Source: Candidatus Omnitrophota bacterium
GTDB lineage: Bacteria; Omnitrophota; Gorgyraeia; S143-82
Direction: 5' to 3'
Assembly: GCA_015494465.1 (NCBI GenBank)
Contig: WGBD01000001.1
Location: 244,477-308,476, forward strand
Length of the DNA: 64,000 nucleotides
How positions within the stretch are numbered: the stretch's first letter is position 1; each line of letters starts with the position of its first letter. A program made the translations under genes and the position numbers. Below, in pieces: positions 4,160 through 60,984 of this stretch. The notes under the pieces were generated by a model. That model made no database searches, was not told where the DNA came from, and saw nothing but the letters and a program-made list of their open reading frames with translations.

Positions 4160-4160
4160 C

Positions 4161-9481: not shown

Positions 9482-9484
9482 CCC

Positions 9485-20935: not shown

Positions 20936-20936
20936 C

Positions 20937-21272
20937 CTACTTCTCCCCCGTCTCTCCTACCGACTTAGTGTCTATTATCTCCGTGATCCTAACCCCGAAG
21001 TTTTCCTCAATAACGACGACCTCTCCCCTTGCCACGAGCTTGTTATTGACCAATATGTCCACGGGATCTCCTGCCAGCTTATCCAATTCTATCACCGATC
21101 CGGGACCGAGATTTAAGACCTCCTTAAGCGGCATCACCGTACGCCCCAATTCGATAACTACATCCAAAGAGACATCCATCAACAGGTCAATGTTCTTGAC
21201 GGGGGTTACTATGTCCCCCTGGAGTTCGTTGAGAGATGCGTTCCTTATGTCCGGATTCTTCTCTTCCGCCAT
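20937..21272 (-). CDS. fliN: flagellar motor switch protein FliN
   Basis: 111 aa. SpoA/FliN domain ([64 protein letters not shown]). Confidence 0.85.
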
Positions 21273-21293
21273 GACTCACCACACCTCCTAGAC

Positions 21294-23325: not shown

Positions 23326-23337
23326 CCCTTCACCTCC

Positions 23338-39854: not shown

Positions 39855-42731
39855 TTACCACCTAAACCTGCTCCGCCAAACCCTTTCTAGATTCTTCACA
39901 TCCTCAACGATGTACTCCTCTCCCTCCAGGCCGTACACGACGAAGCTCTTGCCCTCGCTGGTCCTACCCACCAGCTCACAAGGGAGGCCCTCGAACAGTT
40001 TCTCGAACCTGCCTTTGTGCTTACGATCTATCTCGACCAAAAACCTGCTCTGGCTCTCACTGTAGAACACCACCTCATTGCTTCTACGATCCCCCTCGAA
40101 TGGGACATTGTTCAGAAACAGCTCCGCTCCTATACCCCCTCCTATGCACATCTCCGCCAAGGCCACCCCGATTCCCCCATCGGAGATGTCGTGGCAGGCC
40201 AAGACGATCCCTTCCCTAACCGCCAAGTGCAATCTCTTGTACAACTCCCTGGCCAAGGACACATCCGTACGAGGAACCGAATTGCCAAGCACTCCAAACA
40301 GATTTAGAAATGCGCTTCCTCCCAATTCGTCCCTCGTGAGGCCTACCACATATAGGAGCGTATCTCTCCGCTTTAAGTAAGGAGAGACCACCTTGGAGAT
40401 GTCGTCTATCATTCCCATTCCCGATATAAGGAGAGTCCCTGGAATAGGGATGCTCTCGTTTCCTTTTAGGAACTCGTTGTAAAGGCTGTCCTTGCCCGAT
40501 ATAAACGGTACCCCGAAGCCCAGGGCAAAGTCGTAACAGCCCTTGCTGGCCCGAACGAGTCCTCCCAACCTGTCTGGTTTGTCGGGGTTGCCCCAGCAGA
40601 AGTTATCCAGGATAGAGATCCTATCGGGGTTCCCTCCCACAGCTACTATCTGTCTTATTGCCTCGTCTATACACGCCCCAGCCATCCAATAGGGATCTAT
40701 CCTTCCGTACCAGGGGTTGATCCCACAGCCGAGGGCTATACCTTTCTTGCTGTGTAGGTGTCCGCGTATAACTGCGGAATCGCTTGGGGCGACCTGGCGC
40801 GGTCCGCACAACGGCTTTAATGCCGACCTACCCTGCACCTCGTGGTCGTACTGCCTTATCACCCACTCCTTAGAGGCGATGTTGTAGGAAGAAAGGACTT
40901 GACGGAATGTCTTACTCGGATCCTCTACATCTGGGACGGGCTCTTCTTTCTTCACCCAAGTCCAGACTGCCAACTTCTCTTCCAAAGGTAATCCCCCGTG
41001 GAGGAAGTCCACATCCATCTCCATCACCAGGGCCCCATCGTAGTAAAGGCGCAAGCGACGATCCCCGGTAAACTCCCCTATACAAGTCGCCAGGACATCT
41101 TCTTCGGCAAAGGCGGAGACGACATCCTCCAGGTATTCAGGCTTGACAGCCAAGACCATCCTCTCCTGTGATTCGGAGATCCATATCTCGGTATAGCTCA
41201 GTCCTGAATACTTCAGTGGAACCTTCTCCAGATAGACCACCGCTCCGACATCCCTAGCCATCTCCCCAACTGCAGAGGACAGGCCTCCAGCTCCACAGTC
41301 GGTGATGGCCCTGTACCATCCTTTATCCCTTATCTTCAGCAGGACATCCGCGAACTTCTTCTCTTCGATCGGATTGCCTATCTGTACCGCAGAGGCACAG
41401 CTGTACTGGGACTCCTCGGTCAACTCCGCGGAGGAGAATGTGGCACCGTGGATACCGTCTCGTCCAGTCCTCCCCCCGATCAGGACTATCTTATCCCCTG
41501 GGCGGATCTCCTTCTCTACCGCACCCTTCGGCATAAGCCCCACGGTCCCGCAGTAAACTAGGGGATTGGCACAAAAGTCCGGATCAAAGAAGATCGCACC
41601 GTTGACCGTGGGGATGCCCATCTTGTTCCCATAATCTCTGACCCCTGCCACCACCTCCCGCATCATCCTCCGGGGATGGATAACCCCCTCTGGTACTTCC
41701 TTGGTGTCAGGGGGAGCGAAACAAAACACATCGGTATTAGCGATCGGCTTGGCCCCCAAGCCACATCCGAGCACATCCCTTATCACCCCTCCCAGTCCGG
41801 TGTTGGCGCCACCGAACGGCTCCAGGGCAGAGGGATGATTGTGCGTCTCTACCTTAAAGCACACCGCCCAGTCCGAATCGAACTCTACTACCCCGGCGTT
41901 GTCCTTGAATACCGAAAGGCACCAAGGCTTGTCGAGTTCCTTGGTTGCCTTCATTATGTAGTCCTTAAACAGAGAAGAGATCCTCTCTTCCGTTACGACA
42001 TCTCCTTCCTCCGAGACCTCCCTGTACAATATCGGACTCTTAAAGGTCTTGTGTTGGCAGTGCTCAGACCAGGTCTGGGCTATGGTCTCCAACTCCACAT
42101 CGGTAGGATTTCTCCCCAACTTGCGATAATGTTCCTGAACTGCCTTCATCTCCCTCAGGTTCAAAGAGAGCATCCAATCCTTGCTGATCTGGAGGAGTTC
42201 CTCATCGCCTTTCTCTAGGAGTTCCACCTCCCTGAGGCTAAACTCGTACCCTGGGGACCTCTGGTGAAAAGGATGGAGAAAATCGTTTATGACCCCTATC
42301 TGGATGAGCGGATTGTAGAGCTGGGAAAGAACCGCATTGAGGACACCCTTATCCAAGGGAGGAAACTCGTAGCGCACGCCGGTAAAGACCGCCACGGGAT
42401 CCTGGCGAAAGAACTCCCTAAAGGCCCGGGAGATGGTGATCGCCTCGGGATCCATCACCCCAGGGAGATAACCGATCTCGACCCAGCTCCCTTCGATAAC
42501 GGGAGGGCTATCGTCCGGATAGATGAAGACGCTCTCTACGACGGGATCGAGCAAGACCTTCTCCGCAAAGGCCTCTAGCTCCTCGAGGGAAGGGCCTGCC
42601 TCCAAAAAGACCAGCCTCACTCGCCTTACCGAATCTATCCCTTCGACCCCGAATCCCTTCAAATAGGAAACGATCTCCCGGCTGGCCGGGGAGCCAGGAT
42701 CTCTATGAATCACATGAACACGGATTCGCAT
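39855..42731 (-). CDS. purL: phosphoribosylformylglycinamidine synthase PurL with N-terminal PurS-like domain(s)
   Basis: 958 aa. About 200 N-terminal residues are PurS-like (PGVMDPEAITISRAF). A PurL/AIR-synthase-related core follows (FKVETHNHPSALEPFGGANTGLGGVIRD). Confidence 0.85.
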   Translation of the reverse strand: MRIRVHVIHRDPGSPASREIVSYLKGFGVEGIDSVRRVRLVFLEAGPSLEELEAFAEKVLLDPVVESVFIYPDDSPPVIEGSWVEIGYLPGVMDPEAITISRAFREFFRQDPVAVFTGVRYEFPPLDKGVLNAVLSQLYNPLIQIGVINDFLHPFHQRSPGYEFSLREVELLEKGDEELLQISKDWMLSLNLREMKAVQEHYRKLGRNPTDVELETIAQTWSEHCQHKTFKSPILYREVSEEGDVVTEERISSLFKDYIMKATKELDKPWCLSVFKDNAGVVEFDSDWAVCFKVETHNHPSALEPFGGANTGLGGVIRDVLGCGLGAKPIANTDVFCFAPPDTKEVPEGVIHPRRMMREVVAGVRDYGNKMGIPTVNGAIFFDPDFCANPLVYCGTVGLMPKGAVEKEIRPGDKIVLIGGRTGRDGIHGATFSSAELTEESQYSCASAVQIGNPIEEKKFADVLLKIRDKGWYRAITDCGAGGLSSAVGEMARDVGAVVYLEKVPLKYSGLSYTEIWISESQERMVLAVKPEYLEDVVSAFAEEDVLATCIGEFTGDRRLRLYYDGALVMEMDVDFLHGGLPLEEKLAVWTWVKKEEPVPDVEDPSKTFRQVLSSYNIASKEWVIRQYDHEVQGRSALKPLCGPRQVAPSDSAVIRGHLHSKKGIALGCGINPWYGRIDPYWMAGACIDEAIRQIVAVGGNPDRISILDNFCWGNPDKPDRLGGLVRASKGCYDFALGFGVPFISGKDSLYNEFLKGNESIPIPGTLLISGMGMIDDISKVVSPYLKRRDTLLYVVGLTRDELGGSAFLNLFGVLGNSVPRTDVSLARELYKRLHLAVREGIVLACHDISDGGIGVALAEMCIGGGIGAELFLNNVPFEGDRRSNEVVFYSESQSRFLVEIDRKHKGRFEKLFEGLPCELVGRTSEGKSFVVYGLEGEEYIVEDVKNLERVWRSRFRW

Positions 42732-44010
42732 TGCCTAGTTCCAGACCGCACATCACCCGTTCTGAAGGAAAAGGTATTATATCACGGGCAGGATCCCATT
42801 CAAGCACATAACCCCACAACACCTCTGGCTGGCACGGGTCTTCGCAGTGATCCCCTTTTTGCAGGAGCAAGACCTTTCCCTCTTGCTGTAGTGCCCTCAA
42901 CTCGTAGAATCTTGCCTTATCCCAGGAGAGGACCCGGACCTGGGGATCCCAATAATAGTGGTATCTCAACAGCCACAGATCGCTCCCCATTGCTAAGATC
43001 ACCTTCGGGCGAATAGTCCCCAACTTGGCCAGGAAGATTCGGTTGTATCCCAAGGTCTGTTGAGAAAGCATCTCTGCACTGACCTGAGCGGTCGTAAGAA
43101 ATACCGCCAGCCACAAGGCCACGACGACGGACCTTCGAAGCCAACCCCGCATCCCTTCCCAGATCCGCACCTGGACCTCTATCAACGAGTTAAAGAGTAG
43201 GCCTGCCATGACCATCAAGACGGGTGGCAGGCCAAGACCGACCCCAAAGCACAGGGCCAACGAGAGCCCTATACCTGCCACTGCCAACAAAGGCACCCAG
43301 ACCTTTCTGTCCAAGACGCCCAACCACAATCCACCCAACCCAAGGAAGCCCAAGATGACGGTCTCCAGAGGCAGAGGCCCACTACCACCACCCAAAGGCC
43401 CCAGCGCTCTGAGGACCAGAAAGGCCAGGCCCAACCAAAGCAACGACAAGTACAAGACCTGAGACCTCCGCCTATCAGACAAGCGCACCCGGTGAGCCCA
43501 GAGGAAGAAAAAAGCCGGGAGAAGCGCACCGGCAACCAGGGGATGGAGGATCGTCGCCAACAGCAAGATCCCCACCCCCCAAGCGGTATTTACGAGCACA
43601 CCGGCCCGGGACATCAACTGTGCACCGAGGAGATACAAGCCCAGCAAGAACCAAGCCAATGTCCACCCAAAACCCGAGGAGACGAGGACGAGAAGGATAG
43701 GGGCGCTGAACACCAGCTGAAGGGAAAGGAAGAGCGGAGTAACCGATCTGATCCCCTTCCTGAGGGCCGTCTCGAGGAAGAAGAAGGCACCCAGCAAGAA
43801 AAGGCAAATCTCTACCAGGAGGAGAAAGGCGGGTTCCTGACTCCCTGGGGCCCCGGTCCCTCCAAACCACGAGAACAACCACTTAAGGCCGTAGAGCCAA
43901 TTGGCAAACAGATCCTGCGGTATCCCCGGAAGATCCAGGGACTGGCCTGCGCACAACTCCCGCAGGCCCAATGCCACCGCCACTGTATCCGGCCGGAGAT
44001 AAAACGGCAT
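42703..44010 (-). CDS. polytopic membrane protein of unknown function embedded in the pur operon
   Basis: 435 aa with about 10 predicted TM helices and a soluble Cys-rich C-terminal domain. No recognisable family. Confidence 0.45.
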   Translation of the reverse strand: MPFYLRPDTVAVALGLRELCAGQSLDLPGIPQDLFANWLYGLKWLFSWFGGTGAPGSQEPAFLLLVEICLFLLGAFFFLETALRKGIRSVTPLFLSLQLVFSAPILLVLVSSGFGWTLAWFLLGLYLLGAQLMSRAGVLVNTAWGVGILLLATILHPLVAGALLPAFFFLWAHRVRLSDRRRSQVLYLSLLWLGLAFLVLRALGPLGGGSGPLPLETVILGFLGLGGLWLGVLDRKVWVPLLAVAGIGLSLALCFGVGLGLPPVLMVMAGLLFNSLIEVQVRIWEGMRGWLRRSVVVALWLAVFLTTAQVSAEMLSQQTLGYNRIFLAKLGTIRPKVILAMGSDLWLLRYHYYWDPQVRVLSWDKARFYELRALQQEGKVLLLQKGDHCEDPCQPEVLWGYVLEWDPARDIIPFPSERVMCGLELGNANPCSCDS

Positions 44011-45356: not shown

Positions 45357-45532
45357 CCCAGCAAAACCAAACTAGGGGAATCAAAACCTAACGAGGGATT
45401 TTTCCCTTATTTAAGTTGATTTTCTCGCCTGCCAGCCATAAACTTATATGTGGATGCGCAAAAACAGAGACAGTTTTTTCTAAAGAAGAACCGCTTTAGG
45501 ACGATAGTAATAATAGAAGAACAGGGACGAAG

Positions 45533-45871
45533 ATGGCTGAGATAAATAAGGTTCCACAATCTGGTCTGCCTTCTCAATACCTCCGCCAGGTCTTGGCGGA
45601 TCAAAAGGTCCGTCAACAGGAGAGGGCTCAACAGGAGAAGGCCGAAGAGGTAAAACGACAGGAAGAGGACCGCATATCCATCTCCGAAGAGGCCAGACAA
45701 CTCGCAGAGGCCCAACAATTTTACAAGAAGTTCCTGGAAGAGAAGGCCAAGGAGATAGAGCAAGAGAGGATCGAGAGGGTTAAGGAACTCAAGCGGAGGA
45801 TGACTCAAAAACCTGAGACTCCTTTGAGACTGATCGCGGAAAAGATCTCCCAAGAACTGCTAGGCCTTTAA
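45533..45871 (+). CDS. small charged coiled-coil protein (hypothetical)
   Basis: 112 aa, Q/E/K-rich. Its codon usage (ATA, AGG, GAG) matches neighbouring genes. The overlapping minus-strand ORF 45407-45853 is Leu/Phe-rich, which is the typical antisense artefact of E/K-rich coding. Confidence 0.4.
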   Translation: MAEINKVPQSGLPSQYLRQVLADQKVRQQERAQQEKAEEVKRQEEDRISISEEARQLAEAQQFYKKFLEEKAKEIEQERIERVKELKRRMTQKPETPLRLIAEKISQELLGL

Positions 45872-47898
45872 CCCTCTCCCTTCAACTGTTTTCTCCGCTC
45901 GTTTACCCGCTTATAAAACAGCAATAGCTCCTTTTCACTGGGGGAGATCCCAACATATATGTCACTATCATCCGGGGAGCTCTTTTCCCTCTTCCATTCG
46001 ATCCCGATGAGGGCAAAGTCCTCCCAAGAGGATCCAGCAAAACCCCGAATGTCGCTGGCTATCCTTTCCAGGATAGCGGGCAAAGGTAGCTTCACACAGG
46101 AAAGCACGAGCTTGCCCAACCTATCTACATCGTAAGTGCGCCCTTCACCGTTTCTAAGATTAAATATGCTGGGAGGGTAAAAGATCAAAAGATCCCCCGC
46201 GTGCATGTCCACCTCTTTGGGTTCGTAGAATATCTCTCTAGACAATCCTAGCGGTATCAACTCTTCCACCTCGTAACACCTTATCTGTTTGCGGAACCTA
46301 TCTATCAGTATGAAGGAACTCCCCCCAGCCCCGGAAAAGACGATCCTATTCTTGGTCCCATCCAAAAGCACATACAAGAACCTACAGCTCACATTTATCA
46401 CTGATGCCCTCACGAGGGCCTTATTGATGCTGTAAACCACCTCCCCAGGCTGGTGGGTGATTATGGAATGAGAACGCAACAGCCCCCTTAGATAGGAAAT
46501 CTTCATCAAGGCGGAGGTGCCTTTGTCCATTACATCACCTACCGCAAGGGCAAGCTTATCCTGGTTGATGTCTATGAAGTCGTACATACTCCCGCTGACT
46601 TCCCGCCCGGTGACCTCTTTTATCCGGATATCCAGCCAATCCCTGTGGGCTGGCAGATAAGTGGTCTTTTCCTTTATCTGCTTCACCACCAACTTCTCGA
46701 GCTCCCGCGAACGGCGCTCCAGGATCTTGTTTCGCAATCCCACCCCCACCCCAACAGCGCTCATAACCAGCAGCGAAGCCAAGGATTCTCCGTAGAATAG
46801 GAAAAGACCCTTAGATAAGAGCAGGACTCCCAGCACACTACCCGCGAGTATCGCGATCAACCCTGCACAAATCCCATACCGGGGACTGCTCAGGCCTAAG
46901 AGAGATAAAACCACCGCTAAGGAAAATACCAACAGCATCTGTAACCAACCCGGGATAGCATAGGTCACCATTCCCTGTTTCAAGCCCAAAAAACTTACCG
47001 CAAGGATGTGGTGTAGAGGGAGGATTCGCCCCCCAGCAGGGAGCTGGGGTCCGTAATCCGGGAGATTATATCCCACGAAGCATATCTTACCCGCCACCTC
47101 TCGCCAAGGAGGCACATTGACCCCTTTGTGCAAGAACCTACGGTAAATCCTCTTAGGGAGCACCTTGTTCATCGGTAGGGGCTTGGGGAGTCTTACCTTA
47201 AAAAGGGCAGAGGAAACGGATATCCCGTGGCGATCGTCGAGCCCGAGGGAGAGGTCTTGCCAATACAACCTATTCCAGCGCTGGGAGTACCTAAACTTAT
47301 TCTCGTCAAAGCCCATCTGATAGGCCCAGACCTTCAAGACCAGATGAGATACGATCCGCCCCCGGTAAGAAAAGAAGGGGTAAAATCCTTCAACCTCTCC
47401 ACTTGGCCCCAAGTAAAAGTCACTTGCCCCCAACATTACATAGGGAAGGATCCTCCTCCAAGGGAGCCAGACTATAGTCTCGGCGCTTGCTATTGCTCCA
47501 AACCGCGTAGCGATCTCTCCGAATCTCACCGGGGCTAGCACATTGACCTTGTGCCCCCTCAGCACCCTGACCAGGGCATCGTCACCCGAGGTGCCCGAAG
47601 CGGAACTTATAGGGAACCCCAAGACCACGAGCTTGGCCCTGGAGAGCCTGGCAAGCAGTAAGGCCAGGGCCTTTCTGTTGAGAGGAGGGGTCTGGTTGTA
47701 GTCTCTAAAGCTTTCTTGGTCAATGTCTATTACCACCAGGTCCGGAGACCCTTCCTCGGAAGCCTTCCCCTCAAAAAGGTGCGATTTATAAATTAATTCT
47801 TTAATCTTATGATCCAATATTAAAAATTTGGGAGGAACGAAGAAAAAATAAATCACAAGCCAAGCCAAGGCGATGACCCCTAGGGTATACCTACTCAC
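45868..47898 (-). CDS. CHASE2-domain sensor fused to a PP2C/SpoIIE-family serine phosphatase
   Basis: 676 aa. The periplasmic CHASE2 domain (DLVVIDIDQESF..NRKALALLLARLSRAKLVVLGFPIS..GDDALVRVL) is followed by three TM segments and a PP2C domain (MYDFIDINQDKLALAVGDVMDKGTSALM). Confidence 0.7.
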   Translation of the reverse strand: MSRYTLGVIALAWLVIYFFFVPPKFLILDHKIKELIYKSHLFEGKASEEGSPDLVVIDIDQESFRDYNQTPPLNRKALALLLARLSRAKLVVLGFPISSASGTSGDDALVRVLRGHKVNVLAPVRFGEIATRFGAIASAETIVWLPWRRILPYVMLGASDFYLGPSGEVEGFYPFFSYRGRIVSHLVLKVWAYQMGFDENKFRYSQRWNRLYWQDLSLGLDDRHGISVSSALFKVRLPKPLPMNKVLPKRIYRRFLHKGVNVPPWREVAGKICFVGYNLPDYGPQLPAGGRILPLHHILAVSFLGLKQGMVTYAIPGWLQMLLVFSLAVVLSLLGLSSPRYGICAGLIAILAGSVLGVLLLSKGLFLFYGESLASLLVMSAVGVGVGLRNKILERRSRELEKLVVKQIKEKTTYLPAHRDWLDIRIKEVTGREVSGSMYDFIDINQDKLALAVGDVMDKGTSALMKISYLRGLLRSHSIITHQPGEVVYSINKALVRASVINVSCRFLYVLLDGTKNRIVFSGAGGSSFILIDRFRKQIRCYEVEELIPLGLSREIFYEPKEVDMHAGDLLIFYPPSIFNLRNGEGRTYDVDRLGKLVLSCVKLPLPAILERIASDIRGFAGSSWEDFALIGIEWKREKSSPDDSDIYVGISPSEKELLLFYKRVNERRKQLKGEG

Positions 47899-47930
47899 TC
47901 CAAACCTCCAACTTTAGGCTTATCAGTACA

Positions 47931-49010
47931 TTATAACTCAGCAGGTAAGACCAGCCTAATGCTTTCTTTCCCACCCGGCAAGTGCTTTAATTTCAAGGAG
48001 ATCCCCAACTTGTGCAATATCCACCGGATAAGATTACCTTCCAGGTCCACATCCTTTTTCCATACAATGGTCAACGCATTCCTGGGATCCACATCCTCTA
48101 ACCCCAAGCCCTCCAGATCGCACCTAGCCTCACAGTAGAAGGCAACCTCTACCCCTGAGTAGTTCCCAAACATGCGGATCTCCAGCCGACCGTCCTCTGG
48201 GATGACGGAGAACAGCCGATCCAAGATCAACAACAACAACTGCTCCAACTTGAAGGCGTCGGTTATGACGCGTAAGTCCCCGCTGGAGTGCACCGTCACT
48301 CTCTCCCCCAGCCTGTCAGCGATCACCAACAGGAGGGCATGGTTGAGCACATCTGGGACGAAGACCTCCTGAAGTACGATCCTGTCGCATACCGCATCTA
48401 TCCGAGAGTAGTCCAAGAACCTGTCGTAAATACCGCGCAACTTGTCCACCTCTCTCAAGGCATCTTGGACGAGTCGCTTTAACTCCCCTTCTTGAGGGGC
48501 GAAGAACTCCATCATGTCTTGGATGTTTCTGCTGAGGTTGTGTATGGGCAGGTAAAAGGCCTTCCCTAAACTTGCAAGGTAGGCTGATTTTATCGCATTA
48601 ATCCAGGAAAGGGAGGAAAGCTCTTCTTGGACGATAGCATCCCTGAAGATAAACAGATAGCCCAACCTGTCGCCATTCTCTGCGGTTATTACCTCCGCGC
48701 TGACGACCAACGGCAGGAGAACCCCCTTGCTGGTGATGAAGTTCACCCTTCTAGGATAAACGCTCACCCCTACAGACTCTATCTCCTTTAACACCTCGTT
48801 TAAAACGCTATTTACCTTCCAAGGAAACAGATCCCGCACATTTTTCCCTTGCCAATCCGAGAGATCCAACATGATCTCCAAATTGTGGTTAACATCCAAA
48901 ACCGTCAGGCCGTTATCGCAGATCAGCAGACCTTCCGCTATTGCGTCTCTTGTCACTCGCCATAGCGTCTCTTTGTCTATCATGCTCCCCCTCTCCTCAA
49001 TATCTCCCAA
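47931..49010 (-). CDS. PAS-domain sensor with a degenerate histidine-kinase-like C-terminus
   Basis: The PAS fold covers about aa 15-125. The DHp-like segment (LPIHNLSRNIQDM) is followed by an HATPase-like region in which the N-box Asn and the G1 box are not conserved (LEQLLLLILDRLFS; GLGL retained). Confidence 0.5.
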   Translation of the reverse strand: MGDIEERGSMIDKETLWRVTRDAIAEGLLICDNGLTVLDVNHNLEIMLDLSDWQGKNVRDLFPWKVNSVLNEVLKEIESVGVSVYPRRVNFITSKGVLLPLVVSAEVITAENGDRLGYLFIFRDAIVQEELSSLSWINAIKSAYLASLGKAFYLPIHNLSRNIQDMMEFFAPQEGELKRLVQDALREVDKLRGIYDRFLDYSRIDAVCDRIVLQEVFVPDVLNHALLLVIADRLGERVTVHSSGDLRVITDAFKLEQLLLLILDRLFSVIPEDGRLEIRMFGNYSGVEVAFYCEARCDLEGLGLEDVDPRNALTIVWKKDVDLEGNLIRWILHKLGISLKLKHLPGGKESIRLVLPAEL

Positions 49011-49846
49011 AAGACCTCTGCTTTATTCATCTCCTCTTCAATCTCCCTTCGGAAATCCGAATCTTCCTCCAAGGCATCGGGAAAGAGCTCTCGGACCCTT
49101 ACCATCTCATTGTCGTCTACAAAGTTACCCGCACCGTTTTCTCCTATAGAGAACATGCGCGTTAATACATCCGCCAACCATATTACTTTGACTTCTTTGT
49201 CGTTTTCCCCCACCTCCCAGTCGTGGTGATAAGCCACGACATTCACCAAGCGTTCTGGCATCTTCCAAAATGTGAATAGTTCATAACCTATTGAAGTGTG
49301 AGGGAAGAGCCCTCGCTCCAATTCAATCTGCCAAAAAGGCCTTTCTTCCGCACGAGCATCTCTTAGTAACTCCAGGAAGCTATCCCTTTCTAGCTGATAA
49401 AAAAGTATCTTTCCCACATCGTGAAGGAGCCCGTAGATGAAGAACTCCTCCTCCTCTCGAAATCCCATCTTCCTGGCCACCACCTTGGCCGTAGATCCCA
49501 CGCCTATGCAATGAAGCCAAAACTCCTTGAGATCGAATTCTGAACTGGACTCAACGTTACCCATCAAACTGGACACTGCAAGACCCAAGATGAGGTTCTT
49601 CACCGTACTGAATCCCAACATAACGATGGCGTGGGTTACAGAAGTTATGTTTCCTCGGTACCCGTAGTAGGCAGAGTTGACCACCTTTAGCAACTTTGAG
49701 CTCATCGCCACATCCTTAGAGATCACCTCGGTGATGTCCTTCGCCGACACCTGAGGATCACGCATTGCCTTGAGCACATATTCCACAGACTCGGGTAAGG
49801 GCGGGATCTGAGAAACATCTCTGAGTCTACTTCGGATATCTGCCAT
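48980..49846 (-). CDS. HDOD domain protein
   Basis: 288 aa. IPPLPESVEYVLKAM...LLKVVNSAYYGYRGNITSVTHAIVMLGFSTVKNL is the HDOD signature. Confidence 0.75.
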   Translation of the reverse strand: MADIRSRLRDVSQIPPLPESVEYVLKAMRDPQVSAKDITEVISKDVAMSSKLLKVVNSAYYGYRGNITSVTHAIVMLGFSTVKNLILGLAVSSLMGNVESSSEFDLKEFWLHCIGVGSTAKVVARKMGFREEEEFFIYGLLHDVGKILFYQLERDSFLELLRDARAEERPFWQIELERGLFPHTSIGYELFTFWKMPERLVNVVAYHHDWEVGENDKEVKVIWLADVLTRMFSIGENGAGNFVDDNEMVRVRELFPDALEEDSDFRREIEEEMNKAEVFWEILRRGGA

Positions 49847-49847
49847 C

Positions 49848-51257
49848 TTAGTCCTCCACGATAACCTTTATGCTCTCCAACATGTACTTAGCCACCGTAT
49901 TATCCGGATCCTCTTGCAATAACCTTTCCAACAGCTGTTTGGCAAGGGCAAAATCCTCCCTGTCTATCGCCTTCATGGCCTCTTGGAATAGATCTCCCTC
50001 TCCTTGACCTTGCGCAGGGGTTGTCTTGCTCATTTCAGGCGAGGCAATGGCCTTATCTGCCTCTTTTTTGTCGCCCGCTTGTTTCTCAACAGGCCTGGTA
50101 GTGCTTATCCTGGCAACCGCCTTTCGCTGTAGGTTGGCTATCTTGTCTTTCAAGTTTCGTATGATAATGTCCCTTTCCTCGAGGCGCTTCCTCAGGTCCT
50201 CCAACATCCTTTCTCGCTCTTGGGCCTTACCCTCTGCGATCTCTAATTTAGTCCTCATGTTGTCCTTCTCCAAGCTGGCCGCCTTGATCTTGGCCTCCAT
50301 TGTGCGCATCTTGGCCTCCCTATCCTTAAGCAGGGCCTGGCAATCTTGATAGGCCTTATCTTTGTTGCTTAGTTCTACCGTCATGTCTTGTTTCAACTTG
50401 CGATAATCCTTGGAAATGGCGTCGTACTTGTTCAAGAGCTCCTTGATCCTCCTTCCCCTCTCTTCCAGTTCCTTGCTTAATACTGAGAGCCTTTCCGCCA
50501 ATCTTCTCCGCTCTAATTCTGCCGCTTTGAACTTATCTTGCAAGGAGGCGATTGTATTTTGATATTTATCCTCTAACTTCTTTTCTAGTAGGCTATAACT
50601 GTTGAGGATGCGCTTGATCTTCGCATCCTTCTCTGCTATCTGCCGTTCCTTCTCCTTGAGCTCTTTCTCCAATTCCATCAGGCTGTCTCTCAATTGCTTC
50701 TTTATCTCTTCCAATCGAGCTCTATACTCTTCTTGTTTGGAGGCCAACAGCTCCCTGTACATCTGATCCTTCTTTTCCAAATCAAACTGGGCCTTTTCCT
50801 CTATAGTCTTGACCTTGTCCTCGTACACCCTTTCCAATTCCTGAAGCCTTTCCTCGTAATACTGTCTCCAGCTCTCTTTCTCCTCTACCAGGCGCTTTTT
50901 CATCTCTACCAACTCTTTCTGGGCCTCCTTTAACTGCGCCACTAGGGTATCCTGGCTACAGGATTGGGCCTGTTCAAGCTGGTGTTCCAACTCCATCATC
51001 AGGCTGTCCAACCTAACCTTGATCCTCTGGTCGTCAGGGAACATAAACGCAGCTGAAGAAAGCAAACGAAAGGCGGTCAAAAGGTCTCCTTTTTCCCTCT
51101 CCTCCTCAGCCTCACGATAGAGCTTGTTGGCCCGATCGACCAACTCTTCCCAGACATCGTTGCCTTTCTCGGCAAGGCCTAACGAGTAAGATGGACCTAA
51201 CAACAAGATTACAACCAGAACACACCTACTCCACCTTTTCATGCTCCTCCCCTTCAA
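49848..51257 (-). CDS. secreted long coiled-coil protein with TPR-like termini
   Basis: 469 aa. A signal peptide is followed by about 330 aa of E/K/R/L heptads (predicted coiled coil). The N- and C-termini have short TPR-like helical pairs. Confidence 0.5.
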   Translation of the reverse strand: MKGRSMKRWSRCVLVVILLLGPSYSLGLAEKGNDVWEELVDRANKLYREAEEEREKGDLLTAFRLLSSAAFMFPDDQRIKVRLDSLMMELEHQLEQAQSCSQDTLVAQLKEAQKELVEMKKRLVEEKESWRQYYEERLQELERVYEDKVKTIEEKAQFDLEKKDQMYRELLASKQEEYRARLEEIKKQLRDSLMELEKELKEKERQIAEKDAKIKRILNSYSLLEKKLEDKYQNTIASLQDKFKAAELERRRLAERLSVLSKELEERGRRIKELLNKYDAISKDYRKLKQDMTVELSNKDKAYQDCQALLKDREAKMRTMEAKIKAASLEKDNMRTKLEIAEGKAQERERMLEDLRKRLEERDIIIRNLKDKIANLQRKAVARISTTRPVEKQAGDKKEADKAIASPEMSKTTPAQGQGEGDLFQEAMKAIDREDFALAKQLLERLLQEDPDNTVAKYMLESIKVIVED

Positions 51258-52479
51258 GCCTCGTCAAGAGATCTGGCGACACCAACTGCTTTATTTTATT
51301 CACTAACTCGCCTTCCATATGCCAAACCGGACCTTCCACATCTTTCTCCGGATCCGCTATCAGGACCTCCTTTACCGGATCGCACCTCCCTCCATCTGGG
51401 GTCCTCACCTTGACGCACCGGTATCCTCCCTGCTTGGTGGGTGAGGCGACTATCACCTGGGAACCATCCTTCAACCTTAGCCACTCCCCGACATAATACA
51501 TCGCTACATACCTTTCCAACAATTCCAAGCTCTTTGGGTCGAAGAGCTTACCAGAAAACGAGCGCATAGCATCCAAGACCTTATAGGGCCCGTACATCCC
51601 CCGCAAAGATTCGAAGTTCTCCGCAACCGAGACTATCTTGCTATACAGGTGCATCTGACGGGGATAACCGTAGAAGTCCTTCTCGGGTATGTCGTCCGGA
51701 TACCCGCTGTTATTGACATAGCGATGATGCTCCAGGGCAACTATGCCTACCTGAGGCCCGAATATGTCGGTTTCGTTAATGAGCATACATCCTATCCTCG
51801 AGTGCTTAAAAAAAAGCTCGCGCAAACTAGGATCTGAACCCATCCACAGCTCGTCTACCCATCCCGCATCGCTCATAAGTGCACCGGTGACGATGTGCCC
51901 AATCCTCTCTGCATTCAGCTCTCCATAGTGAAGGGCAATAATACCGGAGATAATAGCCACATTTATAGCGTGGCTCACTCTATAATTGGCATCGGTATAA
52001 ACGAACGGCATAGGGCTGACTTGGTGATAGGAATAGTTTGCCCTCACCAAATAAACTAGATCTTGTATCACCTTCCTATAACGGTGCAATGTATTGAACG
52101 GTATGTTAGAGTACCTCTGCCAGTATTCCCTGAACCTATAGTCCAGCTTTTTATTCTCTCCCTGCTCCGAGAGGTAGATGCTCAATACCACACTGCACCT
52201 GGCCAAGAAATCCTCCAACACCGCTCTGAGGGCAATCCGGGAATCCTCGTCTAATAAGAGATCGAATTCCAGATCGCACCCAGGCTCCTTTAAAAATACG
52301 AAATCCAATCCAAGGGTATTGAGCCTATCCACATGCCCCAGACCTATCTTCACCCCCTTCCCTGCGAACCGAATGCGCATGCCCCGGGCGCTGAGATAGA
52401 CTACATCCCGAGCAAGTTCTGCCTGTCCACCGTACTCCTGAAGAACCGCCTCAAGATTGCTTATAGGAACTACTCTCAT
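51226..52479 (-). CDS. HD-GYP-like domain protein (degenerate: the HD dyad is replaced by SD; the GYP motif is retained)
   Basis: 417 aa. It has EHHRYVNNSGYP (the HHExxDGSGYP-like motif), but the upstream metal-binding motif reads GALMSDAGW instead of xLLHDIGK. Confidence 0.55.
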   Translation of the reverse strand: MRVVPISNLEAVLQEYGGQAELARDVVYLSARGMRIRFAGKGVKIGLGHVDRLNTLGLDFVFLKEPGCDLEFDLLLDEDSRIALRAVLEDFLARCSVVLSIYLSEQGENKKLDYRFREYWQRYSNIPFNTLHRYRKVIQDLVYLVRANYSYHQVSPMPFVYTDANYRVSHAINVAIISGIIALHYGELNAERIGHIVTGALMSDAGWVDELWMGSDPSLRELFFKHSRIGCMLINETDIFGPQVGIVALEHHRYVNNSGYPDDIPEKDFYGYPRQMHLYSKIVSVAENFESLRGMYGPYKVLDAMRSFSGKLFDPKSLELLERYVAMYYVGEWLRLKDGSQVIVASPTKQGGYRCVKVRTPDGGRCDPVKEVLIADPEKDVEGPVWHMEGELVNKIKQLVSPDLLTRLEGEEHEKVE

Positions 52480-52786
52480 TCTTTGCCCTGTAAAGGTTTA
52501 TAAAAAGCTCCACCTTCCCGATGTGAATACCCGATTTAAGGGATATCTCCTTTGGTGAAAGCCCTTGTCTATACATCTCAACCACCTGTTTCGCCTCAGA
52601 GGTGCTCAGAAAATCTTCCTCCTCTTGTCTATCCGAAACCCCACCCGTTCTTGACAACAACGATTCCAAGCGAGTGATTGCCTCCTCAGCCCTCTTTAAC
52701 AAGGCCTCTAACCTCTTTTCCTCTTGCCTTAGAGAGGTCAACATTAAATCAAATACCTCGTAAATCTCCTTCAGTCGCCCTTCCAT
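52451..52786 (-). CDS. small coiled-coil protein with a C-terminal helix-turn-helix
   Basis: 111 aa. The C-terminus GLSPKEISLKSGIHIGKVELFINLYR is HTH-like. It lies in the fliA-adjacent operon. Confidence 0.4.
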   Translation of the reverse strand: MEGRLKEIYEVFDLMLTSLRQEEKRLEALLKRAEEAITRLESLLSRTGGVSDRQEEEDFLSTSEAKQVVEMYRQGLSPKEISLKSGIHIGKVELFINLYRAKNESSSYKQS

Positions 52787-53085
52787 TACGCCTCTTTATC
52801 CAATAACTCCCCTTCTCCTTGAGAATGGAGTTTCCGATCTTTCCCGTAAAACTTCCACTTTTTAGTGCCCCTTCTTTCCTCTCGCTTCCTGGATCTATCG
52901 TCCACTCGCAATTCGCCTCCCTGTTCCGTCTCCACTACTCGCCTCATTCGTTCTCTTCTCTGCTCCCTTATCTCCTTAGCTATGTGCTCCTGAATAACGA
53001 AGTTGTGCTCCACTTTGTTAGCCTGAACCTTCTCTACCCTCTGAACATTGAAGATCATGCCCTGAAAATCTATCGGCCTTATCAC
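52786..53085 (-). CDS. hypothetical basic protein downstream of fliA
   Basis: 99 aa, highly charged (R/E/K), with no recognisable motif. It is translationally coupled to fliA (overlapping stop/start). Confidence 0.35.
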   Translation of the reverse strand: MIRPIDFQGMIFNVQRVEKVQANKVEHNFVIQEHIAKEIREQRRERMRRVVETEQGGELRVDDRSRKREERRGTKKWKFYGKDRKLHSQGEGELLDKEA

Positions 53086-53828
53086 GACACCCCTTCCTTC
53101 TTGAGGCGCTGTCTTATAAGGAATAATGCGGAAGATATCATCTGAGAGACCCGTGACTCGCTCAAGTCAAGGACCTCTCCAACCTCCTTCATCCTCAATC
53201 CCTCGATAAAATAAAGTTCCAGGGCCTTTTGGGTCTTACGATCAAACGAGCTTAACATCTCTGTTATCCTTTCCACTATCAGCCTGCGATCCACCTCCTC
53301 AGCGATATCCTGATAGGAAGCCAGCGTGTCGGATATAGTGATGTCGTCTTTCACCGCATCACTTAGATATACGTAAGCAGACAGATGGCTCAACCTCATA
53401 AGCTCGCGCACCTCGTCAGCGGAGATACCCAAAGCGTAGGCCACCTTTTCTTCTGCCTCGGCAGTACCCGGAAGCAGATCTAATTCCTGGAACTTCTCGT
53501 ACAACTGCTTTATCTTCCGTCGCTGGGCCTTCGGTAGGACATCCTCCCTACGCAGGAAATCCAAGACCTCTCCCCTCACCCTCATGTAGGCAAAGGTCTC
53601 AAAGCGGGTACCACTGCTGGGATCGTATCTATCCACCGCCGAGATCAACCCTACTATACCGTGGGCCATCAAATCTTCCACATCGACATGCTTAGGGAGC
53701 CAGGGAACTATTCGATAAACGATCTTCTCCACCAAGGGCATGTAATAACAGATGATCTCTTCCCTGGCGGAACGATCACCGTTTGCCTTGAATCTATGCC
53801 AAAGAGCATCTAAGTCAGTTCGCTCCAT
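53082..53828 (-). CDS. fliA: flagellar sigma factor FliA/SigD (sigma-28)
   Basis: 248 aa. Sigma-70 regions 2 (YMPLVEKIVYRI, DLMAHGIVGLISAVDRYD), 3 and 4 (LDLSESRVSQM). Confidence 0.9.
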   Translation of the reverse strand: MERTDLDALWHRFKANGDRSAREEIICYYMPLVEKIVYRIVPWLPKHVDVEDLMAHGIVGLISAVDRYDPSSGTRFETFAYMRVRGEVLDFLRREDVLPKAQRRKIKQLYEKFQELDLLPGTAEAEEKVAYALGISADEVRELMRLSHLSAYVYLSDAVKDDITISDTLASYQDIAEEVDRRLIVERITEMLSSFDRKTQKALELYFIEGLRMKEVGEVLDLSESRVSQMISSALFLIRQRLKKEGVS

Positions 53829-54018
53829 TCGAACTCAGTTTCTTTATTGCCTCTGCGTAAAACGAAAGGAAGGCGGTATCCAATATACCCCCCAAGATCC
53901 AAGAGAACAAGACCACAAACCAGGTCTTGTACACCAGTCCATAGAAGCTCAACTCCCCCTTTACCGCCAAGATCGCGACGATCAATAGGCCTATGGAAGC
54001 CAGCAGAGCCTTAAACAT
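53815..54018 (-). CDS. small two-helix membrane protein (hypothetical)
   Basis: 67 aa. It fills the 190-bp ycgR-fliA gap. It has two hydrophobic helices and no good SD. Confidence 0.35.
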   Translation of the reverse strand: MFKALLASIGLLIVAILAVKGELSFYGLVYKTWFVVLFSWILGGILDTAFLSFYAEAIKKLSSNGAN

Positions 54019-54022
54019 GGTC

Positions 54023-54787
54023 TCAGATCATCAACCCGTCCACATGCTTCGGTAGCAACATGGACACATACTGATCTATGTGAACCCGATCCTCCTCCAA
54101 CACATCTACGAACAACAAACCCGTAATGTACTTGCGAGAGTATTCTTCCCAGCGGGAGTTCACCACCTCAGTGACCGCCCTTATAGGGATGCCCATGTCC
54201 GGAAGCACAAAGTCCACTCGGATCCTCGTATGCAGAGGCACCTCGTCTGGGAACAAAACCGCCATCCCCACACTACTCAGATCCCAGCCATCCACCCTTC
54301 CTCTTAATGGAAAGTTCAAGCGCTTCGTCAAGGTATGCTCAACTATCTGATACCGGACTTTGAAAAATATCCTCGCCCTAGGCTTAGTCCTGCGTTGACG
54401 CCTGTATATCACAGTGGGCTTCCTGAGCACCAGGGCTGGAACGGCTCCCTGTTCCTCTATCGCCGATACCACCTCGGTCTGAAATTCATACCTCCCCGAG
54501 GGCAACCCAACGATCGCCAGCATAACCTTGGTCCCCTTAGGCAAGAAGACCGGTACGCTCCTTTCCACCGGCGCACTCAGGACCAACTCGTCCTCCTTTA
54601 CATCCTCTATCCTGCCCTTGTAAACCGTCCTGGGGCGTCCAATCACATACATCTCGTAGCGCTGAGCCGGCTTGAAGACGAATTGCTCCCGCTTGTGAGA
54701 AAGCCTTTTCTCCTCTCTCTCCGATACATTCTCCAACGCGGAAGCTATCTTTTTCAGCAGTTCTGCCAGTTTCTTTAACAGTCTCAT
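54023..54787 (-). CDS. ycgR: YcgR-type flagellar brake protein (PilZN + PilZ domains, c-di-GMP binding)
   Basis: 254 aa. The PilZ motifs QRRTKPR (QRRxxxR) and DLSSVG (DxSxxG) are intact. There is an N-terminal YcgR-like domain. It lies between flhG and fliA. Confidence 0.75.
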   Translation of the reverse strand: MRLLKKLAELLKKIASALENVSEREEKRLSHKREQFVFKPAQRYEMYVIGRPRTVYKGRIEDVKEDELVLSAPVERSVPVFLPKGTKVMLAIVGLPSGRYEFQTEVVSAIEEQGAVPALVLRKPTVIYRRQRRTKPRARIFFKVRYQIVEHTLTKRLNFPLRGRVDGWDLSSVGMAVLFPDEVPLHTRIRVDFVLPDMGIPIRAVTEVVNSRWEEYSRKYITGLLFVDVLEEDRVHIDQYVSMLLPKHVDGLMI

Positions 54788-55629
54788 TTCCCCAACCAGG
54801 ATAAAAATCTATCCAGCCAACTCTGGGGCATCGGTTTGTCCTCAAACGACGCGATAAGATCCTGGGCTATCTTCTTTACCAGCTTTCCCGCAGGAGAAAA
54901 CGGATACTCAAGGATAAACGGTGTGCGTCTCAACACCGACATCACCACCACATCGTCCTTAACTATGTAACCCGCATAGCCTATGTGCATGTTGAGAAAC
55001 TGCCTGCTCACCATTGCAATCCTCTCGTAAATCTCGTCCGCCTCCCGTTTGTTGGTGGCCATGTTCACCAACAAACGCACATCTTGGGTGGGCGCCCTCT
55101 GGGAGATTACCTTTATCATAGCGTAGGCATCGGTTACCGCAGTGGGTTCCGGGGTGGTAACTATGATGGAGACGTCGGTAGAGAGCACGAAATTCAAGAC
55201 ATTCTTGTTAATACCAGCACTGGTATCTATGAGTATATAGTCCGCCATCTGTTGAAGAGATGCCAATTCCTCCAGGATGTAGTGCCTCTCTTTGGAATCC
55301 ACATTCGCTAACTTGGTTATCCCCGAGGCCCCAGGGACTATCTTGATTCCTCCTGGGCCCTCTACGATGATATCCTCTAGCCGTTTGTACTTTTCCAAAA
55401 CATGATAGAGATTGAACTTGGGATTTATGTTCAAAAGCACATCCACATTTGCCAATCCAAGGTCTGCATCCACTATCACGACCTCTTTACCCAATCGTTT
55501 CATGGCGATGGCGAGGTTTACTACCACGTTCGTCTTCCCCACACCCCCCTTTCCGCTGGTAATGCTTATGGAGCGGGCTGGTGCTAAGGCAGAGACCAAC
55601 TCACGCAATCTTTGTGCCTGATCCGACAT
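54784..55629 (-). CDS. flhG: flagellar number/placement regulator FlhG (MinD-like ATPase, YlxH/FleN)
   Basis: 281 aa. Deviant Walker A ITSGKGGVGKTNVVVNLA. It is downstream of flhF. Confidence 0.85.
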   Translation of the reverse strand: MSDQAQRLRELVSALAPARSISITSGKGGVGKTNVVVNLAIAMKRLGKEVVIVDADLGLANVDVLLNINPKFNLYHVLEKYKRLEDIIVEGPGGIKIVPGASGITKLANVDSKERHYILEELASLQQMADYILIDTSAGINKNVLNFVLSTDVSIIVTTPEPTAVTDAYAMIKVISQRAPTQDVRLLVNMATNKREADEIYERIAMVSRQFLNMHIGYAGYIVKDDVVVMSVLRRTPFILEYPFSPAGKLVKKIAQDLIASFEDKPMPQSWLDRFLSWLGK

Positions 55630-56770
55630 ATTCTAGAAGCGCCTCCTCCAATCGCATAGCCATACCGCGTCCGTTTAACTCTTCGATGTCATCGGGAACG
55701 GATTGCCCAATAGTGAGATAAGATATGGGTTTTTCGGTCCAATAAGGGCCGTTTAGTATTATCCCCGGGGTCAAGGTCTCGTCCATCTTGGTAAATATTA
55801 TCTTGTCAAACCTTACCTCTCTAAACTTCTCCACTACCTCCTTCAGCGTGCGTAGGCTACTGGTGGCGCTGAGCACCAGGTGCACCTCGTCCGCATTGAG
55901 GGCATTCAAGAAGGCCCTCAGCTCAGACATCTGCATCTCATTGCGTTGGCTGCGGCCAGCAGTGTCCACGAATATGATATCCCTATCCGCCAGTCTCCTT
56001 AAGGCACCGGGCACATCCTGAGGTGAGACCACCACCTCTATGGGCAGTCTCATTATCTCGGCGTAGGTCCTCAACTGATCCACCGCAGCGATCCTAAAGG
56101 TATCCACCGTCAACAGTCCCACCTTCTTTCCCCGCAAGAGGGCATACCTTGCTGCCAACTTGGCAATGGTAGTGGTCTTACCCACCCCGGTCGGCCCTAC
56201 CAACACCACCTTGTAAGCCGAGTCCGCCTTGAAGACCGGGGAGCCCTCTCCAAGGAACTTCTCTATCGTCTGGGCTAGTCCTCGAACTACCCCCCTGTCA
56301 TCCTCAAACCCTTGGAGAGAGGACACAACCTCCTCCGCGAGCTCTGGATCTACTTCCTGGTCCAGTAAAAAGTTATATACCCTGTCGTGGACACCCTCAA
56401 ACCTTCCAAACGACCTGCTCCTTTGGAGGAGTTTAGAGGTCATGTCCCGCAACTCTTCTAATTCCCGTCGGATAACCTCGAGATGTTTGGGGACTTGTAA
56501 TGTAGGATTGGCGGTATAGAAATCCATCTCCGCGTTTTGGCTATAAACCCGTAGATGCCTAGGGGTAGGTCTGGTTAGTGAGCTCCGATCCAATATTCGC
56601 ACATCTGCAGAGGCGGTTATCTCCACCAGTTCCCGTTTCCTCCAAAACCGCCAGCCATCCCGCTGATAATAGGTCCTGGTATGCAGGATAACCGCATCCT
56701 CACCCAATTCCCTGCGAATGCGGTTCAACACCTCCCGCATGCTGGTTCCCCTGAACTTCCTTATGTCCAT
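55601..56770 (-). CDS. flhF: flagellar biosynthesis GTPase FlhF
   Basis: 389 aa. SRP-type GTPase (LVGPTGVGKTTTIAKLA, DTFRIAAVDQL, DTAGRSQ). Confidence 0.85.
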   Translation of the reverse strand: MDIRKFRGTSMREVLNRIRRELGEDAVILHTRTYYQRDGWRFWRKRELVEITASADVRILDRSSLTRPTPRHLRVYSQNAEMDFYTANPTLQVPKHLEVIRRELEELRDMTSKLLQRSRSFGRFEGVHDRVYNFLLDQEVDPELAEEVVSSLQGFEDDRGVVRGLAQTIEKFLGEGSPVFKADSAYKVVLVGPTGVGKTTTIAKLAARYALLRGKKVGLLTVDTFRIAAVDQLRTYAEIMRLPIEVVVSPQDVPGALRRLADRDIIFVDTAGRSQRNEMQMSELRAFLNALNADEVHLVLSATSSLRTLKEVVEKFREVRFDKIIFTKMDETLTPGIILNGPYWTEKPISYLTIGQSVPDDIEELNGRGMAMRLEEALLEYVGSGTKIA

Positions 56771-56771
56771 A

Positions 56772-59938: not shown

Positions 59939-59942
59939 ATCC

Positions 59943-60719: not shown

Positions 60720-60984
60720 TCACCACTTCCGGTATAAGAGAGAACACACTCACCGTAAACCCGACGATGATGTTCAGGAACCACGGGAGCAACAGGGCAA
60801 CCAAGAGCATCACCGCCAGTATCTTCGGCACGAAGGTAAGGGTCATCTCGTGTATCTGGGTAACCGCCTGAAATATGCTCACCAAGAGTCCCACCACCAG
60901 ACTACCCAAGAGAAGGGGCCCGGCAATCATAAACCCCACCCACAATCCTTTGCGCAAGACCTCTACCGCCAGATCCGGCCCCAT
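60712..60984 (-). CDS. fliQ: flagellar biosynthesis protein FliQ
   Basis: 90 aa. LWVGFMIAGPLLLGSLVVGLLVSIFQAVTQIHEMTLTFVPKI is FliQ-like. Confidence 0.85.
   Translation of the reverse strand: MGPDLAVEVLRKGLWVGFMIAGPLLLGSLVVGLLVSIFQAVTQIHEMTLTFVPKILAVMLLVALLLPWFLNIIVGFTVSVFSLIPEVVNV

Follow-up and report, generated by a model that had tools for sequence, protein, structure and literature searches.

A conserved block of largely degenerate signalling genes follows fliA and meets flgM head-on in a flagellar operon of Candidatus Omnitrophota

In a 64,000-nucleotide stretch of contig WGBD01000001.1 from a Candidatus Omnitrophota bacterium (hereafter the window), the gene for the flagellar sigma factor FliA (sigma-28) is followed on the same strand by seven tightly packed genes, the last of which converges on flgM, the gene for the anti-sigma-28 factor. 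We show that this block, coupled to fliA at the level of translation, has remained beside it where both flanks were rearranged, and that its HD-GYP-, kinase- and PP2C-like domains have, as far as aligned sequences can tell, lost their catalytic residues while keeping their conservation among orthologues. On balance we lean, if only slightly, towards reading the block as the distal part of the flagellar export/fliA operon, encoding a mostly non-catalytic, membrane-spanning regulatory or scaffold module that is tied to the FliA/FlgM checkpoint. A preliminary description of this DNA had proposed an uncharacterized flagellum-coupled island for sensing cyclic di-GMP (c-di-GMP) and serine phosphorylation; its observation holds up in essence, apart from a gene that it overlooked (orf67) and a negative that is most probably wrong (flgM). 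All seven open reading frames (ORFs) that it placed behind fliA exist (45868-53085, minus strand), and the domains it assigned to them are supported by Pfam and NCBIfam. The block and its borders are as follows.

53082-53828, minus strand: fliA (sigma-28), TIGR02479 FliA_WhiG 190.5 bits (cut-off 189.6)
52786-53085, minus strand: orf99, basic small protein of 99 amino acids, six orthologues, no family
52451-52786, minus strand: orf111, short coiled coil and DUF6115 C-terminal domain, PF19610 31.7 bits (cut-off 27)
51226-52479, minus strand: HD417, degenerate HD-GYP-like protein of 417 amino acids with extra N- and C-terminal domains, Pfam HD 20.1 bits (cut-off 22)
49848-51242, minus strand: CC469, putatively exported coiled-coil protein of 469 amino acids with TPR-like ends (464 with the start picked by the gene caller), TPR_19 and SMC-like coiled-coil matches
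48980-49846, minus strand: HDOD protein, 288 amino acids, PF08668 193.9 bits (cut-off 22.9)
47931-48983, minus strand: PAS359, with PAS, DHp and degenerate CA domains, 359/350 amino acids, PAS_9 29.9 bits
45868-47898, minus strand: CHASE2 membrane protein with a cytoplasmic PP2C-like domain, 676 amino acids, CHASE2 PF05226 39.8 bits (cut-off 26.3) and SpoIIE PF07228 76.8 bits (cut-off 25)
45533-45871, plus strand: flgM (anti-sigma-28), 112 amino acids, convergent, also called by the metagenome gene caller
45481-45507, plus strand: sigma-28-type flgM promoter, TAAAG-N15-GACGATAG, conserved in four loci

The clearest signs of lost catalysis lie in the PP2C-like domain. A HMMER search of 1.84 billion representatives returned 20,293 relatives of this domain at E≤1e-3, only three of them at E<1e-30, namely the orthologues, with the next match at 8e-21. 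Because no solved structure was matched when the Protein Data Bank (PDB) was searched by sequence with the domain alone and as a five-sequence profile, we aligned it instead to 147 canonical relatives, which gave the following picture.

Asp of the GD motif, 100% in the 147 relatives: Ser or Gly in all five orthologues (S437 in the window)
Asp of the TDG motif, 99%: Pro in all five orthologues (P576 in the window)
Gly of the TDG motif, 100%: Ser or Ala in all five orthologues
First Asp of the DDxT motif, 99%: Glu in all five orthologues (E626 in the window)
D455 and D627, 99% each: retained in the window clade

Conserved Asp residues hold the catalytic metals in PPM/SpoIIE phosphatases, and because the altered Asp positions are the ones with this role, the domain is most likely a pseudophosphatase, where the preliminary description had spoken of a PP2C phosphatase. 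A regular-expression search found no canonical PP2C protein in the fetched loci.

PAS359 is histidine-kinase-like and probably not a kinase. It reaches 17.9 bits against HisKA, below the cut-off of 26.9, gives NCBIfam AtoS at E=3e-11, and has no Pfam match to HATPase_c. Aligned to PhoR-type kinases, it carries Lys or Gln at the phospho-His position and Arg in place of the N-box Asn, and lacks the G1 and G2 boxes (no DxGxG, no GxGxG). Its AlphaFold2 model (predicted local distance difference test, pLDDT, 75.9) matches PAS-histidine kinases at E=1e-17, DivL among them, and the PAS-DHp-CA fold is retained overall. In HD417, the HD dyad is altered in five of the six orthologues (SD in the window; ED, TD or SD in the others) and reads HD in locus L082 only. 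Compared to the HHExh(D/N)GxGYP motif that defines HD-GYP domains (bioRxiv 10.1101/2021.11.05.467447), the protein reads HHRY-x-NN-x-G-[YW]-P (HHRYVNNSGYP in the window); across all seven sequences the HH and the GYP region are kept, with Glu replaced by Arg and Gly by Asn. Its AlphaFold2 model has a pLDDT of 77.9, falling low in the motif loop, and the top PDB fold matches, Bd1817 (probability 0.94, E=0.02, TM-score about 0.3) and V-cGAP3, are weak. Only seven homologues of HD417 were found among 5.8e9 proteins. The HDOD protein has H112, H142-D143, H183 and H207-H208 invariant across 14 fliA-linked HDOD proteins. Long invariant stretches are kept among the orthologues of the HD-GYP-like, kinase-like, PP2C-like and HDOD proteins, which indicates that these are maintained proteins and not decaying genes.

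Two small proteins stand at the head of the block. No match to orf99 was found in Pfam, NCBIfam or, with a profile, the PDB. It belongs to an unannotated small-protein family whose members begin M-x-x-[PA]-[IVL]-[DEH] and end [IL]-[DN]-x-x-[VAI]; in the window clade these termini read M-x-[IL]-[RH]-P-I-D-F and [IL]-D-x-E-[VA]. The second gene after fliA, orf111, matches PF19610 over profile positions 47-134 only, with further matches to SpiroCoCo_C (E=4e-9) and weakly to helix-turn-helix models; no hydrophobic segment or membrane anchor was detected in any of its six orthologues.

The block is also physically coupled to fliA, as the preliminary description supposed. The minus strand carries almost every gene of the window, and an uninterrupted string of ORFs runs from 60984 down to 45868, beginning with the export genes. 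Neighbouring genes of the seven-gene block either overlap, by 1-32 nt, or are separated by no more than 32 nt; over all related loci they again overlap or lie no more than 46 nt apart. On the minus strand of the block a consensus scan turned up no sigma-70-like site, and the sole terminator-like site there is one weak hairpin within the PP2C-like gene; terminator-like sites total 10, compared with 10.9 expected from shuffles. Thus, nothing above shuffle expectation separates the block from fliA by promoters or terminators of its own.

The order fliA-orf99-orf111-HD-CC-HDOD-PAS-CHASE2/PP2C recurs in all six contigs with an HD-gene homologue (the window and five others), two of the related contigs ending before the last gene or genes of the block. 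Identity to the window within the block ranges from 28% (coiled coil) to 59% (HD), and reaches 72% for the PilZ protein upstream. The surroundings differ on both sides: downstream stand purB (window and L082), aspS (L084) or a Cys/Met-metabolism gene (L086), and upstream of fliQ stand ribonucleotide reductase (window and L089), fliO-fliP (L082 and L086) or fliL-M-N (L084). Since fliQ comes straight after fliO-fliP in two related contigs, the break ahead of it is a feature of the window and L089 alone. The intact order of the block despite such rearranged flanks argues against hitch-hiking, and the check that the preliminary description had asked for, conservation of the gene set beside fliA in relatives, came out in its favour. 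G+C content is 0.485-0.51 across 46001-54000, compared with 0.53-0.56 in most of the window. Recent horizontal acquisition was considered as the cause and rejected: because all relatives carry the block, Lys/Glu-rich coding is the more likely explanation.

Upstream of fliA, the string consists of the following genes, and at every orthologous locus it runs on from fliQ-to-flhG into the seven-gene block, the related loci reading (flhA-flhF-flhG-)PilZ-orf67-fliA.

54784-60984, minus strand: fliQ, fliR, flhB, flhA, flhF and flhG, with Pfam matches to Bac_export_3/1/2, FHIPEP, SRP54 and ParA/MinD-type models
54023-54787, minus strand: YcgR-like PilZN-PilZ protein, 254 amino acids, PF12945 43.2 bits and PF07238 30.1 bits
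53815-54018, minus strand: orf67, 67 amino acids, two predicted membrane segments, a gene-caller call in all six loci

The preliminary description was right to see a YcgR-type PilZ protein with intact motifs here, and overlooked the conserved orf67 that lies between it and fliA. The start of orf67 is 4 nt past the PilZ stop and the gene overlaps the fliA start by 14 nt; because orf67 fills this interval, the apparent 194-nt gap before fliA is coding. Orthologues of orf67 are 38-67% identical; it has no Pfam match, and no counterpart appeared among 80 flagellar loci of other phyla (described below). The PilZ protein keeps RxxxR (RRQRRTKPR) and DxSxxG (DLSSVG) in five orthologues of 58-72% identity, which makes it a plausible c-di-GMP input and, from these motifs alone, sustains that part of the proposed c-di-GMP sensing. 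FliA itself has Sigma70_r2 and r4 above their cut-offs and r3 just below (23.6 compared with 25.3 bits).

The preliminary description had stated that the window holds no anti-sigma partner, a negative that the convergent flgM most probably overturns. The window FlgM falls below family cut-offs (Pfam FlgM 16.7 of 25 bits; TIGR03824 E=2e-4, 22.1 of 40.75 bits); its L084 orthologue scores 35.9 bits, above the cut-off of 25, and all four orthologues match FlgM at E≤0.1. A search of the PDB with a FlgM profile gave no meaningful match. Orthologous flgM genes carry the promoters TAAAG-N-GCCGATAA (L082), TAAAG-N-GCCGATTA (L084) and TTTAAG-N-TCCGATAA (L089), and the conserved promoters sit 25-35 nt ahead of the start codon. 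The sigma-28 consensus (TAAA-N15-GCCGATAA) is known from enteric bacteria and Bacillus. A relaxed sigma-28 pattern has two matches in the whole window, a count that 15 of 100 shuffles reach; because this window-wide count is not significant, the promoter call rests on conservation in four loci. Of the five loci that extend to the end of the block, four keep flgM there; one of these is L084, which has a different next gene.

At this border a TTAA palindrome (45868-45871) is common to the stop codons of flgM on the plus strand and the PP2C-like gene on the minus strand. With the stops overlapping, each transcript must end inside or beyond the opposing gene, and a terminator between the two cannot fit; the two genes abut in L089 and lie 16 nt apart in L082. 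Presumably co-transcribed with fliA and convergent on a flgM predicted to be FliA-dependent, the module would be made together with sigma-28 and exposed to antisense or collision feedback. That such feedback from flgM transcription operates is speculation on our part.

Scanned ORFs of the window include no GGDEF, EAL, STAS or CheY-type receiver domain, in agreement with the preliminary description, and since five ORFs lack any Pfam match this negative is not absolute. Nor was a STAS or RsbW-type protein present in the scanned window ORFs or among the genes tabulated for the orthologous loci. Scans of the window for Rfam families and tRNAs came back empty, which leaves no c-di-GMP riboswitch. 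Sensing of serine phosphorylation is therefore not supported: the PP2C-like domain has Ser/Gly and Pro at two metal-binding Asp positions, no STAS protein or anti-sigma kinase accompanies it, and PAS359 lacks the N, G1 and G2 boxes.

Hydrophobic segments in the module are confined to the CHASE2 protein, CC469 and orf67 (two segments), save for a borderline stretch in most HDOD orthologues (73-92 in the window). The CHASE2 domain, a region of about 280 residues, is flanked by hydrophobic segments at 2-29 and at about 311-384 (about three overlapping stretches), with a weak stretch at 77-95 inside the region in the window and L082 only. CC469 has an N-terminal hydrophobic segment, a candidate signal peptide, in all six orthologues. 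This topology suggests a module that extends across the inner membrane and has two parts predicted to lie outside the cytoplasm. We propose that its proteins form a signal-transduction or scaffold complex working through binding and not catalysis, in which the CHASE2 domain and the exported CC469 would read the state of the envelope or periplasm. The pseudo-PP2C, the PAS-pseudokinase, the HDOD protein and the degenerate HD-GYP would dock one another, FliA, FlgM, the export gate or small ligands. Such a ligand might be c-di-GMP, alongside the YcgR-like PilZ protein, and the output could adjust the FliA/FlgM checkpoint or flagellar export in a manner resembling the action of SwrB.

SwrB, encoded after sigD in Bacillus, activates the flagellar export of FlgM and so raises SigD activity (bioRxiv 10.1101/2021.04.30.442225). 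The likeness of the window to the end of the B. subtilis fla/che operon lies in a DUF6115-family gene near the sigma-28 gene, one gene further along in the window. At the level of the family, orf111 and an ORF of Fictibacillus (L052) that overlaps the end of sigD, in the position of swrB, both pass DUF6115 (36.2 bits for the latter). In contrast to orf111, SwrB has and needs an N-terminal single-pass membrane helix (bioRxiv 10.1101/2021.04.30.442225), and compared to the sigD-swrB arrangement the window has six more genes, one before orf111 and five after it. A second comparison is the HptB-HsbR-HsbA switch of P. aeruginosa, in which a PP2C-type regulator reaches sigma-28 through FlgM by way of a STAS protein (PMC5085249). 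The window resembles this system in having a PP2C-type gene near flgM and flagellar genes, the Pseudomonas system setting sigma-28 activity. However, the window has no STAS protein, receiver or kinase domain, its PP2C-like domain is without two of the catalytic Asp residues, and its sensor is a periplasmic CHASE2 domain.

The remaining proteins also have known relatives. SadB, an HDOD protein that controls flagellar synthesis, binds c-di-GMP (PMC6543031). SadB of Pseudomonas and GsmR of Xanthomonas, both of which control flagella, share with the window an HDOD domain of no known enzymatic activity; the window HDOD stands alone, with neither YbaK nor receiver domains, and its gene lies next to a kinase-like one in the fliA operon. 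Inactive HD-GYP proteins act through protein contacts, and ECA3548 of Pectobacterium, which fuses PilZN-PilZ to an inactive HD-GYP, affects motility (bioRxiv 10.1101/2021.11.05.467447). HD417 resembles ECA3548, HnoD of Shewanella and Bd1817, its top though weak structural match, in its altered HD and HHE motifs on a fold that is probably retained; unlike them, it belongs to a seven-member family, adds N- and C-terminal domains, and is encoded separately from PilZN-PilZ, the two genes flanking fliA. PAS359 may recall DivL, a pseudo-histidine kinase that acts as a binding sensor and has the PAS-DHp-CA fold without the canonical phospho-acceptor His, but the CA domain of PAS359 also lacks the N, G1 and G2 boxes and no cognate response regulator is nearby. 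The PilZ protein, with its PilZN and PilZ domains, intact c-di-GMP motifs and location in the flhG-fliA interval, shared by many Clostridia-type operons, looks like the YcgR/MotI/FlgZ brakes and shows nothing unusual in its sequence.

Each of these domain types is thus known, as are regulators attached to flagellar operons. What is new is a composition that is degenerate throughout, together with HD-GYP-like and CHASE2-pseudoPP2C families confined to the clade and a wider pattern, fliA-orf99-HDOD-kinase-DUF6115, of which no description was found in the searchable literature. A scan of species-representative genomes with FlhA, from which 80 flagellar loci of many phyla were kept (the best among the matches listed being 45-56% identical), 62 of them containing fliA, supplied the set against which profiles of the six-locus families were run. 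ORFs resembling orf99 lie downstream of fliA, from directly adjacent to about 2 kb away, in Bacillota (L039), Atribacterota (L026), KSB1 (L004), Fibrobacterota (L006) and a delta-proteobacterial metagenome-assembled genome (MAG; L059). DUF6115-like ORFs follow fliA in nine of the 80 loci, and an HDOD gene follows it directly in 7 of the 62. From the Pfam matches of the neighbours, the recurring order is fliA, an ORF of about 100 amino acids, HDOD, a GAF/PAS-HisKA protein, and a TPR/coiled-coil protein with DUF6115 or DUF2802 at its end. HATPase_c is part of the GAF/PAS-HisKA protein in L044, L063 and L146 but not in L009 and L144; L004, L009, L063 and L144 carry the TPR/coiled-coil protein, and its fusions to DUF6115 may represent a fifth recurring family, the counterpart of CC469. 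Carriers of the module include KSB1, Fibrobacterota, Ignavibacteriota and further MAGs; at the positions below, an ORF of about 100 amino acids, a stand-alone HDOD gene and a GAF/PAS-HisKA gene come after fliA.

L144:1949-6659
L009:10603-15435
L004:5075-9765
L063:7830-11955
L044:14379-17440
L146:3-2335
L006:14495-17985
L079:14484-17453

No counterpart of the HD-GYP-like gene or the CHASE2/PP2C-like gene, and no sequence homologue of CC469, was present in the 80 loci, so these three appear to be additions of the window clade. The view of the block as a lineage island thus holds for the complete set, which is restricted to the clade, and fails for the orf99, DUF6115, HDOD and sensor-kinase-like families, which follow fliA in other phyla as well. 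A bolder reading, which we offer only tentatively and think rather improbable as a whole, is that these four families form an ancient accessory module of sigma-28 operons in several phyla, with the HDOD protein as the direct output partner of the kinase, acting on FliA/FlgM or export. In the window clade this module would have been rebuilt as an almost wholly non-catalytic, envelope-spanning complex, its operon placed head-on to flgM and under sigma-28 feedback by convergent transcription.

Several observations weigh against reading the block as a non-catalytic module linked to the FliA/FlgM checkpoint. L086 has no flgM at the end of the block. In PAS359 an invariant His, H148, follows the canonical phospho-His position at a distance of 7 residues (two helical turns), and an alignment to three NtrB-type kinases places H148 on the H-box. 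E626, together with the retained D455 and D627, could leave the PP2C-like domain with residual metal binding, and the HDOD protein retains HD-type metal ligands. We infer the catalytic death of the PP2C-, kinase- and HD-GYP-like domains from their motifs. As a control, 80 metagenome loci were fetched with the HDOD profile, 49 of which have at least 1 kb of upstream DNA; fliA lies upstream in 4 of these 49, with one further truncated case. The idea of an HDOD subfamily that is always fliA-linked was rejected on this count, and linkage to fliA is a recurrent but minority context for HDOD. For the HDOD domain itself, catalytic activity has never been reported (PMC6543031).

Among other explanations, the one that fares best, though we judge it unlikely, is that the genes encode structural or assembly accessories of the flagellar motor, with a periplasmic coiled-coil/TPR scaffold anchored by the CHASE2 protein and cytoplasmic pieces at the C-ring or export gate. 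The genes do lie inside the export-apparatus operon, CC469 is predicted to be exported with coiled-coil and TPR regions, pseudoenzymes typically serve as scaffolds, SwrB-family and orf99-family genes are widespread in flagellar operons, and the window holds extra FliM-like and MotB paralogues. Yet PAS, CHASE2, HDOD and HD-GYP are sensor and signalling folds, HDOD in other phyla is partnered by a full GAF/PAS histidine kinase whose HATPase_c is intact, which points to signalling, and the position with fliA and flgM fits regulation. Decidedly less probable is an enzymatically active c-di-GMP and serine-phosphorylation pathway, with the CHASE2-PP2C protein as phosphatase of an unlinked STAS-type partner and the HD-GYP-like and PilZ proteins as c-di-GMP readers. 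Such a pathway would draw on the clear SpoIIE/PP2C family membership (76.8 bits), on the PP2C/STAS/FlgM partner switch known in Pseudomonas (PMC5085249) with flgM adjacent here, on the intact PilZ motifs and on the GYP motif kept in HD417. It conflicts with the replacement of two metal-binding Asp residues by Ser/Gly and Pro and of a third by Glu in all five orthologues, with the altered HD dyad, HHE and DG residues of the HD-GYP, and with the absence of STAS, anti-sigma kinase, GGDEF and EAL domains among the scanned ORFs in 64 kb. That the genes are unrelated to flagella and hitch-hike on operon read-through is very improbable: the motility link does rest on gene context and not on experiment, the G+C content of the block is slightly below that of its flanks, and HDOD homologues are mostly located elsewhere, but the order is intact in six of six loci at 28-59% identity while the flanks are rearranged, translation of the genes is coupled, at least five phyla have related families behind fliA, and flgM stays on the block end when the next gene changes.

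The block is of interest in several ways. The recurrence of HDOD between fliA and a sensor kinase in several phyla could be turned into a testable hypothesis, that HDOD is a kinase-controlled modulator of sigma-28 or of export. Three signalling enzymes in one operon that have apparently lost their catalytic residues and are still conserved offer a useful model for pseudoenzyme signalling, and the checkpoint function of Bacillus SwrB may have relatives far outside the Firmicutes. A practical limit is that carriers of the full block are all uncultured MAGs.

Further features of the window concern its other genes. Flagellar genes form three clusters (688-12974, 19726-24126 and 45533-60984), between which lie purine, aspartate-semialdehyde, folate and other housekeeping genes. 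A 1783-amino-acid ORF (28420-33771, minus strand) has zero Pfam matches, and a 435-amino-acid ORF in the purB/purL interval (42703-44010, minus strand) likewise has none; L082 carries a 478-amino-acid ORF without Pfam matches in the same position (L082:18561-19997). There are two FliM-type genes, one of 313 amino acids (12033-12974, minus strand) beside fliF and a GH57 glycoside hydrolase, and one of 291 amino acids (21294-22169, minus strand) within a fliL-fliM-fliN-fliO-fliP cluster. Upstream of fliL stand two neighbouring MotB-like genes with MotB_plug and OmpA domains (22651-24126, minus strand), and the only motA found (688-1449) is about 22 kb from this pair.

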